From contig BTWA01000017.1 of assembly GCA_045863295.1 (NCBI GenBank), forward strand, positions 55,753 through 119,752: a DNA stretch of 64,000 nt. The letters run 5' to 3'. The DNA is from Candidatus Hydrogenedentota bacterium (GTDB lineage: Bacteria; Hydrogenedentota; Hydrogenedentia; Hydrogenedentales; SLHB01). Of this stretch, positions 31,525-37,146 are shown piece by piece; position 1 is the first letter of the stretch, and each line of letters starts with the position of its first letter. The notes under the pieces are model-generated. The model saw nothing but the letters and a program-made list of their open reading frames with translations. It was not told the DNA's origin and made no database searches. A program made the translations under genes and the position numbers.

Positions 31525-33534
31525 ATGCCACTCACATGTGAAGTGTCCGCCAAACAATATACCGTGGTGGCCTTTAGAGAAGGCGAAGCCGATCGCTGGG
31601 TTGTCCTCAACGGGTCCCGCTGCACCATCGGACGTTCCAAGCAATGCACGCTTTGCATTCCCGATCCCACCGTATCCAGAGAGCATGCAATCATCTCTAT
31701 ACGAAACGGGGGTTTCCTGCACATTGAGGATTGCGGGTCAACCAATGGCGTGTTCGTGAATGGCGAGCAGGTGGCCAGTAGCGTGATTCGCGCGGGCGAC
31801 TTCATTACGGTGGGCGTGTATACCATCGTAGTGCGCGTGATTGAATCCGACGAAGAATCTGCTGGCAGCACGGAGAGTACGCACCCGCCCGAAACCCTGG
31901 TTCAAAAAGCCGATTCTTCACATCGATTGCGCGACGCGTTTGAGATCAAACATTCCGCCGAGCATTACCGAGCGTTATATCAAGTGTCGCTCCTGATGGG
32001 CGAACGGGCGGACATCCGCACGCTGGTCCGTCAAGCATTGGCGGTCATTTTGAAGGCACTACCCGCAAAGCGCGCCGCAGTGATCGCACGCTTTGTCGGC
32101 AACAAGGACAATAACCTTAGTGAGTTGGTATGTCTGGATCCGGAGAACCCTAGTCCTCCAATCAGTGAGGCCTTGATTGAATTTGCCATGCGACGAAGTT
32201 CTGGTGTGCTCATGTCTGATTTTGGACACGACCGCAGGACGACGGCGGACATCAACGAATTAACCGGGGCGCGCGGTCCGTTTATCTGCGTGCCCTTGGG
32301 CGGATCCAAGAAACAGTTTGGGATTCTCTATGTGGACGGATGCTTGGAGGGGTATCCCTTTACCAAGCAGGAACTGCAGTTTCTGACTGCGTCCGGGCAC
32401 GTTCTGGCCATGTCCATAGAAAACAAAGACTTGGTGGACCGCGTAGTCCGACAGGAGCGCATGGCAGCGCTTGGACACGGGATTGCGGGGATTTCACATG
32501 ATGTCCGCAATGTGTTGACTGGTATAAAAGTGGGTGTCGACATGATTTCGTCGGAAGACAACGGATCCAAACCAGTTGTATCCGATCGGGCTGTTCGCCT
32601 GATTCGAAGGTCCACTGACCAAGTTGAAGCGTACCTGTCGGAATTGTTGGATTATGTGCGACGGAATCATATTGTGAGAAAGCCCACGTATGTGAATGGG
32701 CTGATTCGTGATGCACTCGATTTGGTTCAGCCCCGTGCCAATCAGCACGGCGTTCAGTTGACGTTTTCAGGCGGAGGGTATGAACCGGCCAATATCGACG
32801 GTACCCAGATGGCGCGCGTCATCAACAATTTGCTGAGGAATGGGGTGGATGCCTGCGCAACCAATCAGGGCGCCGTTACCGTTGCGGTGTGGTCGCGATC
32901 CACGACTCTTTACATTCAAATCGCCGATACCGGCGCGGGGATTTCCAAACAGGACATTGACCGCCTGTCAGAACCGTTCTTTACCAAGAAGGGATCGGCT
33001 GGAACCGGTCTCGGGCTTTCCATTAGTTATCGCATAGTTGAGCAACACGGAGGGAATATCCACGTTGACAGCGAGTTGGGCAGAGGTACGACGTTTACAA
33101 TAGTGTTGCCCGATTCCCTGGACGCGCATATCGATTTCATACCTCCACAGCAGTCCTACGCGGAAGAGGGGTGCGCGTACAAGAAATGCCCGTATTGCGG
33201 CCATACGTGGCTTTCGCAAGACGAATTACTGCGCGATCCCGCGTGCGCGCTTGCGGGCTACAGGGCGCATTTTGAGAATTTGCCGTCCGGGCTGCTGTTG
33301 TTCAACCACGTATGCGGCACAACGCTGGCCTTTCCGGCTCAGGATTTTCTTCACCTGTACAACGGACCCGTCCACTCGGAAGCGTTAACAGGACAGCCTG
33401 AATGCCCGGGGCATTGCCTTCGGCAGGACTGTCTGGAAAACTGTGCGAACGAGTGCGCTTGTGCACACATTCGTTCGCTGCTGCAAACCTTGCTGCGCTG
33501 GCCCAAGAATGCCGAACCGGACCAACACGGCTAG
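31525..33534 (+). CDS. FHA-GAF-histidine kinase with C-terminal Cys-rich domain (paralogue 1)
   Basis: FHA IGRS...VSREHA...GSTNGVFVNG; GAF ICVPL...GILYVD; H-box SHDVRN; N/G1/F/G2 boxes; CPYC...HVC...CPGHC...CANECAC tail. Confidence 0.9.
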   Translation: MPLTCEVSAKQYTVVAFREGEADRWVVLNGSRCTIGRSKQCTLCIPDPTVSREHAIISIRNGGFLHIEDCGSTNGVFVNGEQVASSVIRAGDFITVGVYTIVVRVIESDEESAGSTESTHPPETLVQKADSSHRLRDAFEIKHSAEHYRALYQVSLLMGERADIRTLVRQALAVILKALPAKRAAVIARFVGNKDNNLSELVCLDPENPSPPISEALIEFAMRRSSGVLMSDFGHDRRTTADINELTGARGPFICVPLGGSKKQFGILYVDGCLEGYPFTKQELQFLTASGHVLAMSIENKDLVDRVVRQERMAALGHGIAGISHDVRNVLTGIKVGVDMISSEDNGSKPVVSDRAVRLIRRSTDQVEAYLSELLDYVRRNHIVRKPTYVNGLIRDALDLVQPRANQHGVQLTFSGGGYEPANIDGTQMARVINNLLRNGVDACATNQGAVTVAVWSRSTTLYIQIADTGAGISKQDIDRLSEPFFTKKGSAGTGLGLSISYRIVEQHGGNIHVDSELGRGTTFTIVLPDSLDAHIDFIPPQQSYAEEGCAYKKCPYCGHTWLSQDELLRDPACALAGYRAHFENLPSGLLLFNHVCGTTLAFPAQDFLHLYNGPVHSEALTGQPECPGHCLRQDCLENCANECACAHIRSLLQTLLRWPKNAEPDQHG

Positions 33535-33593
33535 GCGAACCCATCCGCATCATTCCCGGAACTTCATCTTTCATGTCGACCCTCCAGGCGCGA

Positions 33594-34589: not shown

Positions 34590-35160
34590 GATGAGTATCC
34601 CTTAGAGGTTAGGTATGGCCGAGATCTGTTTCTGAAGATAGTATCCGATCATTCCCACCCACCGCACTCAAGGCTTTTCCAGATTCAAATTGGGCGTATT
34701 CGGGCCGCCATTTGTCAATCAATATCTTGTGTGTTGAATACCAATCTACCCAATATATCTGGATTTGCTCATAGACATGATCTGAATAAAAGTGATTTCC
34801 GGGTTTTGCCGGAGATGCCATCTCGATAATCTTGACACCATTTGGCATTTTTTGCGAATTCACGATATAACTACTGTGCAGGTTTTTGGCTTCCGTTCAA
34901 AGCGGTGCCAGACGGGGTCCAAATTCGACACAGCCGGTGTACGAGACGATTTCTTCGGTCCACTCGCTTTAAGAGGCGCGCTCTGGCCGATTCTTCAGGA
35001 ATCGCGGTTGTACACACGGTGGAGATGCAGGCGTGCGCACAGAAATACGTTGCCGCTGCCGATTGAGAAGCCTCCCGGGCTTTCTGCGCTCTCCAGGTGT
35101 GGCTCGCCAATCCTTCCATTCGCGATTTTGGGTCTGTCAACCCGGAGCAGCGGTGAAGTC

Positions 35161-37146
35161 ATGCCAACTCTGAACACGATCACTGGCAAGAAGTTTCTGG
35201 TAGTCGCATTTCGTGACGGCGAACCGGACCGCCACGGCGTGCTAAATGGCAAGGTGTGCGTCATCGGTCGATCGAAGAAGGCGGACCTGTTCATTCCCGA
35301 TTCGACCATTTCCCGTCAACACGCCTTGGTGAAAATCGCCAACGGCAATGAATTGATCATCGAGGACTGCGGTTCCACCAACGGCGTATACGTCAACGGG
35401 ACTCAGGTATCGGCTTCTGCGATTTCCGAAGGGGACTTGATCACGGTGGGGGCGTATACGCTTGTCGTTCGCGCGCTGGACGACACCACCGACCGGGTCG
35501 AATCGGTTAAGGAAACGCAGTTTGTGGGTGGCGAGTCGTCGCAGCGAATATCGGCGGCGCTCAAAGTGAAGCACAGCCCGGAGCACTACGAAGCGCTGTA
35601 CAAAGTTGCATTGCTCCTGGGAGAGAATACGGAGTTGAACACGCTTCTGCGTGAAGTACTTGCCACTGTATTGGAAGCACTCCCCGCGATGCGCGGAAAT
35701 CTAACGGTGGTATCCCGGGATCAAGGCCAGCGGGAAATCAATGAGACGATCTACTTGGGCGAGGCCGGGGATTTTCCTGACCTACCCGTTGCGCTGGCGA
35801 CCTACGTGATGAACCGGCGATCGCCACTGTTGACCCGGGACGCGGGCGCCGAAACTCGTATTCCGGTGGCGGCTGTGCACGGCCGCTCGACATGGCCGCT
35901 GGTATGCGTTCCGTTGTGCGGAACACAAGGCGGACTAGGAACGATCTATTTCGACGGGAGGCCGGATGACAAGCCTTTCCAGGATCGGGATCTGCAATTT
36001 CTTACGGCTGTGGCCCACGTCATATCAGTCAGTATTGAGAATCGCCACCTTATCGACGGAATTCTTCGCCAGGAGCGTCTGGCCGCACTTGGCCGGGGCA
36101 TCGCGGGCATTTCGCATGATGTTCGGAACGTGTTGATTGGAATCAAGGTGGGCGCCGAGATGCTGAGCCAGTTGGATTCAAGCGCCGGTCAAAAACACAT
36201 CAACAAGGCGGTCGGCATTATTCGCAAATCCGCCGATCAAGTGGAGACGTACCTCACCGAACTGCTCAATTTCGTGCGACAGAATAATGTGGTGTGCCGG
36301 CCGACGTTTGTGCACGGGCTGTTATCCGATGCAATCGAATTGGTGAAGCCGCAGGCCGAAGAGTTGGGCGTCGAAATCGAGTATATGGGGGGAGGTTTCG
36401 AACCGGCCAGTCTGGATGCGCTTCAAATGCAGCGTGTGGTGGTGAATCTGCTCAAAAATGCGGTTGAGGCGTGTGCCGGCCGGGACGGTAAGGTAATCGT
36501 CACGTCCGAAGCGCGATCAGGCAAATTATATCTCCGCATTCGAGACAACGGAACCGGGATTCACCAACAAGATTTGGAGCATTTGTTCGAACCATTCTTC
36601 AGCAAGAAAGGTTCCGCCGGGACGGGTCTTGGGCTTGCCATAAGCAGTCGCATCGTGGAACAGCACGGCGGCCGCATTCGCGTATCCAGCGAGGTGGGTA
36701 AAGGCACCGTGTTCACGATAATCTTGCCCAATGCCTTTCGTTACACGGCCGAAGACTCTGAAGTCGATACGGATCTGATTGGCGACGACAAACCGCAATT
36801 CATTTGCCGGGGTTGCAATCAGGTATGGCTCGAACGAGAAGGACTGATCAGCGATCCGGCGATCGCCCTCGCGGGTTATCAGGCAAATTTCGACAACCTG
36901 GAGTCAGGCCGGTTCGTTTTCACGCACGAATGCGGCGCATCGTTTTCCGTATGCGTTAAATCGTTCCTCACGTTGTGCGCCGAACACGTTCACACGGGCT
37001 ACCGCCTAAATGGAGAGGCCTGCCCCGGCTACTGCATGCATGAGCACGAACTCGACCCGTGTGGAGCGGAATGCGAGTGCGCCTACATTCGCAATGTGCT
37101 CGACGTAGTTCGCAAGTGGCCCAAAGCGATTCCCGCACACGAATGA
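35161..37146 (+). CDS. FHA-GAF-histidine kinase with C-terminal Cys-rich domain (paralogue 2)
   Basis: Start set at ATG 35161 by alignment with paralogue 1; same FHA, GAF, SHDVRN, NLLKNAVEA, DNGTGI, GTGLGL motifs; CRGC...HEC...CPGYC...CGAECEC tail. Confidence 0.9.
   Translation: MPTLNTITGKKFLVVAFRDGEPDRHGVLNGKVCVIGRSKKADLFIPDSTISRQHALVKIANGNELIIEDCGSTNGVYVNGTQVSASAISEGDLITVGAYTLVVRALDDTTDRVESVKETQFVGGESSQRISAALKVKHSPEHYEALYKVALLLGENTELNTLLREVLATVLEALPAMRGNLTVVSRDQGQREINETIYLGEAGDFPDLPVALATYVMNRRSPLLTRDAGAETRIPVAAVHGRSTWPLVCVPLCGTQGGLGTIYFDGRPDDKPFQDRDLQFLTAVAHVISVSIENRHLIDGILRQERLAALGRGIAGISHDVRNVLIGIKVGAEMLSQLDSSAGQKHINKAVGIIRKSADQVETYLTELLNFVRQNNVVCRPTFVHGLLSDAIELVKPQAEELGVEIEYMGGGFEPASLDALQMQRVVVNLLKNAVEACAGRDGKVIVTSEARSGKLYLRIRDNGTGIHQQDLEHLFEPFFSKKGSAGTGLGLAISSRIVEQHGGRIRVSSEVGKGTVFTIILPNAFRYTAEDSEVDTDLIGDDKPQFICRGCNQVWLEREGLISDPAIALAGYQANFDNLESGRFVFTHECGASFSVCVKSFLTLCAEHVHTGYRLNGEACPGYCMHEHELDPCGAECECAYIRNVLDVVRKWPKAIPAHE

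Follow-up and report, generated by a model that had tools for sequence, protein, structure and literature searches.

The closest described counterparts of the kinases treated here are EspA and EspC of Myxococcus xanthus (NF052573 and NF052574, named “serine histidine kinase” in NCBIfam), which likewise carry an N-terminal FHA domain on a cytoplasmic histidine kinase. FHA domains bind phosphothreonine and GAF domains bind small ligands; EspA carries PAS rather than GAF domains. A 2008 paper by Higgs et al., cited in PMC4320627 and PMC11980068, reportedly terms EspA an orphan hybrid kinase in its title. One part of a published account describes EspA as a hybrid kinase with a receiver domain and states that the Ser/Thr kinases PktA5 and PktA8, in complex with EspB, may interact with EspA (PMC4320627). 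We analysed a stretch of 64,000 nucleotides from a Candidatus Hydrogenedentota bacterium (contig BTWA01000017.1, positions 55,753–119,752; hereafter the window), in which two genes on the forward strand, HK-A (31525–33534) and HK-B (35161–37146), encode FHA-GAF-HisKA-HATPase_c sensor kinases of 669 and 661 residues that both end in the same Cys-rich tail. The twins are almost certainly lineage-specific duplicates of a cytoplasmic FHA-GAF-DHp(HisKA)-ATPase kinase whose subclade captured, at its C-terminus, a widespread unnamed domain that normally stands free. For the domain itself we tentatively propose a role as a two-zinc, partner-binding module downstream of two-component signalling.

The kinases are a variation on a known theme, that of FHA-bearing orphan histidine kinases such as EspA. 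The EspA model matched the FHA part (model positions 46–117, E-values of 9e-12 and 2e-12) and the kinase part (366–610) of HK-A and HK-B, while the scores against the EspA and EspC models were 101–112 bits (101–104 for EspA) compared with cut-offs of 1400 and 1200, so that the twins are not equivalogs of these proteins. EspA has a receiver, whereas HK-A and HK-B do not, and the twins have a Cys-rich tail that EspA lacks. For the DHp and ATPase core, the best curated models were AtoS (NF008468; 187 bits for HK-A and 179 bits for HK-B, cut-off 646) and ZraS (NF007688; 159 and 165 bits, cut-off 479). Kinases of the AtoS/ZraS type are membrane sensors without FHA, GAF, or a tail of this kind. The first-pass annotation, made from the sequence alone, had regarded the twins as a hub joining several signals. 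The domain order that it gave is right, but EspA already joins an FHA domain to a histidine kinase. The heterodimer that it considered possible finds no support; taken as a pair, the twins are simply lineage-specific duplicates, and the noteworthy part is the tail, which represents an uncurated family with a confidently predicted fold lacking a solved neighbour and with two putative metal sites.

Pfam models placed FHA, GAF, HisKA, and HATPase_c in this order in both proteins, all above the curated cut-offs except the HisKA domain of HK-B. The FHA domains (residues 33–97 in each; 31621–31815 in HK-A and 35257–35451 in HK-B, + strand) scored 68.6 and 66.8 bits against PF00498, and the IGR, SR(E/Q)H, and STNG motifs are intact in both. 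Arg37, Ser51, His54, and Asn74, which we take to be the phosphothreonine-pocket residues, are invariant across 10 orthologues. The GAF domain spans residues 163–298 of HK-A (32011–32418, + strand; PF01590, 27.2 bits) and residues 157–293 of HK-B (35629–36039, + strand; PF13185, 31.4 bits, and PF01590, 30.2 bits), the PF01590 cut-off being 22.4 bits. The kinase cores (32482–33114 and 36100–36732, + strand) consist of HisKA (residues 320–381 in HK-A; 32.2 bits for HK-A and 25.1 bits for HK-B, cut-off 26.9) and HATPase_c (residues 425–530 in HK-A; 94 and 99.4 bits). The H-box SHDVRN, with His325 in HK-A and His319 in HK-B, is present in both kinases, as are the N, G1, F, and G2 boxes of the ATPase domain (NLL(R/K)N..(D/E)AC, D(T/N)G.GI, EPFF, and GTGLGL). 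By motifs and Pfam matches, both proteins qualify as histidine kinases with FHA and GAF domains. A receiver, as expected of a hybrid kinase, was sought in HK-A and HK-B, and neither gave a PF00072 match at E ≤ 1.

The two proteins are 47% identical across 664 aligned positions and contain no membrane-type hydrophobic stretch, the maximum Kyte-Doolittle mean over 19 residues being 1.45 for HK-A and 1.28 for HK-B. Their open reading frames (ORFs), Pfam matches, motifs, and hydropathy agree with the earlier description of two soluble FHA-GAF-kinase paralogues with intact motifs. The database gene call for HK-A (P0003) is 655 residues long because its start was placed later. The HK-B frame is open upstream from a GTG at 34792, and ATG 35161 is the likely start because HK-A and eight orthologues align from there; the gene call P0170 also has 661 residues. 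The 123 open codons ahead of this ATG (34792–35160) are without a counterpart in HK-A or the orthologues. The GAF domains of tail-bearing kinases share a conserved C(V/A)PLCG motif (32287–32304 in HK-A; 35905–35922 in HK-B, where it reads CVPLCG). Its first Cys is present in 10 of 10 sequences and its second in nine, with a Gly replacing the latter only in HK-A. A pair of Cys residues placed inside a GAF pocket might serve to attach a ligand or act in redox chemistry.

The tail occupies 33178–33510 in HK-A and 36796–37125 in HK-B (+ strand), with the first CxxC at 33187 and 36805 and a terminal WPK at 33499–33507 and 37117–37125, respectively. In HK-A it is separated from the ATPase domain by a linker of poorly conserved columns (33115–33177, + strand). 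The two tails, each of about 115 residues, are 38% identical overall and share eight Cys residues (tail positions 11, 14, 53, 83, 87, 96, 100, and 102) and three His residues (positions 51, 73, and 124). The twins therefore keep eight Cys as the first-pass annotation had stated, but three His rather than one. Curated databases provided little help in naming the tail. No NCBIfam family matched at E ≤ 5, and the only Pfam match at E ≤ 10 was UPF0547, over a 12-residue zinc knuckle (E 0.026; 15.1 bits against a cut-off of 29). Four free-standing homologues (P0004, P0006, P0009, and P0010) likewise matched no curated family. DUF1062 (PF06353) was the nearest Pfam-named cluster in a language-model search, both for the tail and for a free homologue; its score of 0.81 is within the range of shuffled sequences, and it was rejected. 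The PF06353 model matched none of 135 genomes of the phylum, including six that carry the tail domain, and gave no match to the tail in hmmscan. Word searches of full-text literature found no description of the domain, which does not show its absence from print. The first-pass annotation could not assign the tail to a named family, and this held across Pfam, NCBIfam, PDB sequences, Foldseek, and VIA, in none of which a characterised domain was matched.

Word-index homologue searches detected hardly any relatives of the tail (the window's own protein only; two among longer proteins). An exhaustive profile search with the two tails across 1.84 billion representatives gave 697 matches at E ≤ 0.001, 377 at E ≤ 1e-10, and 32 at E ≤ 1e-30, and the observation made on the twin tails is therefore far beyond chance. 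Among the best 150 of the 697, 142 proteins have 215 residues or fewer and eight have more than 250. Source names are “hypothetical protein” or absent, except for a receiver fusion named “response regulator”. As judged from these matches, the tail family is real, uncurated, and made up mostly of free-standing proteins of about 115–130 residues, in approximately 700 sequence clusters. We also collected 80 loci in a genome scan with the single pattern CECAYVRE, taken from a seven-row alignment, and the collection is biased to members with that motif. The ORF has 181 residues or fewer in 75 of these loci, and two are kinase fusions (L065 and L068). Record titles name at least 15 phyla, with no phylum in 14 titles; the largest groups are Thermodesulfobacteriota (27 loci), Planctomycetota (9), Nitrospirota (7), Lentisphaerota (5), and Calditrichota (4). 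Several proteins of 186–375 residues that seemed to be extended forms (P0008, P0011, P0015, P0078, P0084, P0122, L023, L041, and L060) are best read as over-long gene calls, because the extensions are without a Pfam domain and look low-complexity or out-of-frame. One Calditrichaeota metagenome-assembled genome (MAG; L077) has two free-standing copies in tandem (5363–5746 and 5926–6369).

The fusions relate the domain to signalling. Five of the eight long proteins are FHA-GAF-kinase-tail proteins or fragments thereof (P0003, which is HK-A, P0005, P0007, P0025, and P0019), while P0058 is a PAS-PAS-kinase-receiver-tail protein, P0105 a receiver followed by the tail, and P0101 the tail followed by an acyl-ACP thioesterase. 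In the two-component fusions identified from sequence, the domain is always C-terminal or downstream. The tail had been thought to sit where a hybrid kinase would carry its receiver. This does not hold, because the tail follows a receiver in P0058 and P0105, and therefore does not replace one, and because most members are free-standing. Since the fusions, though few, sit behind kinases or receivers apart from the one thioesterase, the domain may be an accessory or output module of two-component signalling that has so far gone unrecognised. In a Candidatus Desulfobia pelagia MAG (L049, 5299–6366), an ATPase-receiver ORF and the Cys-rich domain are in-frame with a stop codon between them, and one tblastn match to P0058 spans both. 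The upstream ORF begins inside the ATPase domain, and this gene may be broken or mis-assembled.

Neighbours of the free genes were examined in the 80 loci. Four of the 68 same-strand neighbours within 100 bp encode signalling proteins; these are a GAF-kinase gene 39 bp upstream (L035), a receiver gene 19 bp upstream (L086), a GGDEF gene 60 bp upstream (L052), and the ATPase-receiver ORF of L049. L035, L086, and L049 represent split forms. Isochorismatase, ADI-like, DUF2959, and DNA-alkylation-repair genes also recur, mainly at loci with Desulfobacterales or deltaproteobacterial titles, and were set aside as lineage synteny. In three loci (L073, L081, and L083) the free gene directly follows a ferritin gene, and in L081 and L083 it also directly precedes a DsbD gene. 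At one locus it follows a gene for a CxxCxxCC protein.

The history of the fusion was traced with the kinase core (residues 1–530), for which the best 120 homologues were listed. The tail is present in 13 of them, all FHA-GAF-kinases and all among the 16 best matches, and the named members of this fused clade are Candidatus Hydrogenedentes or Hydrogenedentales. Many more distant FHA-GAF-kinases of 528–564 residues stop right after the ATPase domain, and a second, tail-less paralogue group with 30–33% identity occurs in four genomes of the phylum (G005, G008, G015, and G030). The tail is therefore a later addition to a pre-existing scaffold. Among the 135 genomes of the phylum, six have the domain: two copies in G000, one fused copy each in G008, G030, G120, and G121, and one free copy of 128 residues in G015. 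No free copy was found in the window's own genome. The occurrence of the tail in frame in related genomes, on which the earlier proposal depended, is thus established by G008, G030, G120, and G121 together with 13 of the 120 closest kinase homologues. In the tree of the kinase core, HK-A and HK-B are sisters with a Shimodaira-Hasegawa-like approximate likelihood ratio test value (SH-aLRT) of 100, and the duplication is therefore lineage-specific and later than the fusion. The tail tree is too short to resolve, with two of 69 branches starred. In the FastTree analysis, one starred clade contains nine of the 11 kinase tails, and the HK-B tail lies outside it on a long branch.

The HK-A tail is 44–52% identical to the orthologous tails and the HK-B tail 35–42%; as judged from the alignment, the HK-B tail diverged faster yet keeps every ligand. 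The ratio of nonsynonymous to synonymous substitution rates (dN/dS) among three orthologues is 0.06–0.07 for the tail and 0.05–0.10 for the core, so that the tail is under purifying selection and functional in the fused kinase. Between HK-A and HK-B, synonymous changes have reached saturation (dS > 1.7), and the ratio for this pair means little. These data bear on the possibility that the tail is evolutionary baggage, a chance fusion without a role in the kinase. Three of the 16 closest kinase homologues (P0176, P0179, and P0181) are without the tail, and the faster divergence of the HK-B tail would also fit such an idea. Nevertheless, 13 database kinases and four further genomes from the phylum keep the tail in frame, its dN/dS is as low as stated, and the eight family ligands and Cys102 have been kept in both twins since a duplication old enough to saturate synonymous sites. 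We regard baggage as extremely improbable.

Conservation of the putative ligands was counted in an alignment of 126 rows (A2), 124 of which are free proteins. Cys11 is kept in 122 rows, Cys14 in 123, His51 in all 126, Cys53 in 124, Cys83 in 121, Cys87 in 126, Cys96 in 124, and Cys100 in 122, whereas Cys102 is kept in 86 (68%). The family core of ligands, as the alignment presents it, is thus seven Cys and one His, each in at least 96% of the 126 members, rather than the eight Cys and one His noted at first. Only His51 of the three shared His residues is family-wide; position 73 is mostly Phe or Tyr elsewhere. By sequence order and predicted secondary structure, the ligands would fall into two groups, CPxCG...HxCG (C2HC) and CPGxC-x8-CPxxC (C4). 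In HK-A, the putative site 1 comprises Cys555, Cys558, His595, and Cys597, and the putative site 2 comprises Cys627, Cys631, Cys640, and Cys644, with Cys646 nearby; all ligands are kept in HK-B. At tail position 66 (HK-A residue 610), nine of 10 kinase-fused tails in a second alignment (A5) have a His within the motif DF.HLY, while Asp is the commonest residue in the wider alignment (84/126); this His may be a fusion-specific adaptation.

In the strongest rival of the proposed zinc module, the tail is a redox or metal sensor on the input side. The sensor would be either a thiol switch that releases zinc on oxidation or an Fe-S cluster at CPGxC-x8-CPxxCxC, its state would change kinase or receiver activity, and the free copies would be small redox-sensing regulators. 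Eight Cys in approximately 110 residues, with the partly conserved fifth Cys beside the second group, are consistent with this idea. The second group also lies in a loop without regular secondary structure that would need a metal to hold its shape. Furthermore, many of the 80 loci come from mostly anaerobic lineages, among them Thermodesulfobacteriota, Nitrospirota, and Calditrichota, and the ferritin, DsbD, and CxxCxxCC neighbours would also fit a redox sensor. On the other hand, these ferritin and DsbD neighbours occur in only three of 80 loci, and the domain is placed after the kinase or receiver, a position of output rather than input. No Fe-S family was matched, and neither Fer4 nor any other Fe-S match appeared at E ≤ 10. 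A CxxCxxCxxxCP-type motif is absent from the tail; the spacing is C-x3-C-x8-C-x3-C-x-C, and two C-x3-C pairs are not the usual pattern of a 4Fe-4S site. The missing motif does not exclude an unconventional cluster. In the first group, the His ligand in zinc-ribbon knuckles is typical of zinc, and the CPxCG/HxCG pair favours zinc over Fe-S, at the first site at least. Of the earlier suggestion of a metal or Fe-S module, the metal part is thus consistent with the two four-ligand groups, and the Fe-S part is disfavoured for the first of them. We consider a redox sensor doubtful, though a serious candidate.

The AlphaFold2 model of the tail, built from the family alignment, has a mean predicted local distance difference test (pLDDT) value of 93.5 and a predicted template modelling (pTM) score of 0.85. 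It consists of a hairpin knuckle, a helix (21–26), three strands (30–36, 46–51, and 56–60), and two further helices (61–67 and 103–113), with the second Cys group in the long loop 68–102. Structure searches returned almost nothing. Foldseek against the PDB gave no match at E ≤ 0.001 (best E 0.28), VIA against 48,161 chains gave none at Z ≥ 5 (best Z 3.2, PX domains), BFVD gave none at E ≤ 0.001, and the best PDB sequence-profile match was 1qyp at E 0.43. The PX-domain rows (Z 2.5–3.2) and AcrVIA1 (E 0.28; Z 2.8) were rejected as noise. According to the documentation of VIA, a best Z of 7–8 is usual even for models to which Foldseek finds no clear match. The tail model is thus unusually isolated among solved structures and possibly has a new fold, of which a missing match is no proof. 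In a full-length model (pLDDT 70, from only nine sequences), residues 535–548 have pLDDT values below 50 and the tail has the same secondary structure as when modelled alone. The tail is thus a conserved module that folds on its own and is attached through a flexible tether, predicted to be disordered and about 20 residues long.

The first third of the tail resembles a zinc ribbon such as the N-terminal one of NrdR or the C-terminal one of TFIIS, in that a CPxCG knuckle lies on a beta hairpin and a second knuckle follows about 37 residues on. The local matches are weak (7p37, VIA Z 2.3 over 42 residues; 1qyp and UPF0547 at the E-values given above). The likeness is confined to this third; the second knuckle of the tail is HxCG, and the rest of the tail, including the second Cys group, is without a counterpart in the ribbon. 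CZB domains are alike in concept only, as small metal-binding accessory domains at the end of signalling proteins. A CZB domain is a four-helix bundle with a His/Cys zinc site, and the tail is not a member, since UPF0547 was its only Pfam match at E ≤ 10. The ribbon-like start raises the possibility of a zinc-finger-type output that binds DNA or RNA, and P0105, a receiver followed by the tail, resembles a classical response regulator. The three tails found in receiver or enzyme fusions have a basic isoelectric point (pI 8.1–8.9), as such a binder might. However, the family is acidic overall (median pI 6.05 and net charge −2, n = 228), the two window tails have net charges of −6 and −10, and no known DNA-binding fold was matched. 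Nucleic-acid binding is therefore very unlikely.

Besides the ligands, Trp18, Asp27, Gly34, Tyr35, Gly45, Phe49, and Arg106 are near-invariant. The conserved polar residues outside the ligand set are Asp27 (122/126), Tyr35 (124), Arg106 (116), Thr56 (109), and Gln36 (98), and they could line a pocket for a nucleotide second messenger or a metabolite, in which case the tail would be a small-ligand receptor. Occurrence mostly as a small free protein, with occasional fusion to a kinase, a receiver, and the thioesterase of P0101, would suit a receptor, as would the GGDEF gene upstream of one free copy. No similarity to a known receptor domain was detected in sequence or fold, and we consider this reading quite unlikely.

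Our tentatively preferred reading, the two-zinc partner-binding module, combines these observations as follows. Both four-ligand groups would hold structural zinc, and the domain would serve as a protein-binding adaptor or output module working downstream of two-component modules. The free-standing form would meet its partners in trans, whereas the kinase- or receiver-tethered form would bring the same partner to the phosphorelay. In the twins, FHA would dock on a phosphothreonine that one of approximately 30 Ser/Thr kinases encoded in the genome has generated, GAF would read a small ligand, and the core would autophosphorylate His325 (HK-A) or His319 (HK-B). The phosphate would then be passed to an unlinked regulator, probably of the NtrC type, and the tail would couple this phosphorelay to its partner. 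Kinases of the AtoS/ZraS type, the nearest models of the core, presumably pair with NtrC-type regulators. A prediction of the complex between the tail and the DHp-ATPase dimer of HK-A (residues 300–535) scored 0.00 against a mark of 0.32, and as it was run without controls it weighs neither way.

Several observations weigh against the partner-binding module. The kinase can do without the tail, as P0176, P0179, and P0181 show. Signalling proteins fuse promiscuously, and independent fusions of the domain are few (three or four). At four in 68, signalling neighbours are about as frequent as signalling genes are estimated to be in such genomes generally; adjacency therefore adds little, and only the fusions carry weight. 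The free form has no consistent neighbour in the 80 loci; the commonest cluster, in 12 of 80, reflects synteny among close relatives. Asp27, Tyr35, Gln36, Thr56, and Arg106 would be as much at home in a pocket for a small ligand as at a protein interface. An Fe-S cluster could occupy the second Cys group, and anaerobes make up many of the host lineages in the record titles.

A bolder version of the proposal would make the family a third component of two-component systems, a free-standing protein with its own fold and two metal sites that docks on kinases or receivers, where its Cys4(+1) group (zinc-thiolate or Fe-S) would gate phosphotransfer according to its state. This is unlikely. If true, many phosphorelays in bacteria of oxygen-poor habitats would take in redox or sulfide status. 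The Hydrogenedentota kinases would then have hard-wired the module, with one protein integrating phosphothreonine through FHA, a small ligand through GAF, and redox state through the tail. For either version, the fused kinases offer a functional handle that the free forms lack, since kinase activity can be assayed and FHA, GAF, and the tail can be removed singly. The tail family merits at least a database entry and a metal analysis.

Judged by their position, HK-A and HK-B are orphans; their genome encodes many proteins of both partner types. As the first-pass annotation had reported, the window holds neither a response regulator nor a Ser/Thr kinase, since a Pfam scan that covered 42 window ORFs found no receiver or Ser/Thr kinase domain. 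The genome as a whole has 91 Response_reg and 30 Pkinase matches, 29 of the Pkinase proteins scoring above the family cut-off, and none of these matches is on the 120-kb contig of the window (C17). The twins are separated by a 331-residue ORF on the opposite strand (33594–34589, − strand) with a signal-peptide-like N-terminus, as read from its sequence, and only a weak FG-GAP_3 match below the cut-off; it is not part of the kinase system. Scans of 30800–37300 for promoters, terminators, and repeats returned no signal that exceeded the background of shuffled sequence. On the opposite strand, some 680 bp ahead of HK-A, a gene for a DUF2089 zinc-ribbon/HTH regulator adjoins one for a PspC-domain membrane protein (29692–30848, − strand). 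Farther upstream, a gene for a PadR regulator precedes three genes in a row that each encode an N-terminal HAAS domain (21003–24228, + strand), an arrangement that looks like a tripled PadR-associated membrane sensor module. A same-strand block at 3458–18905 (− strand) contains MoxR AAA ATPase, DUF58, BatA/VWA, and VWA genes, followed by a gene for a TPR protein of 2961 residues, and is a Bat/aerotolerance-type operon with a giant TPR member.

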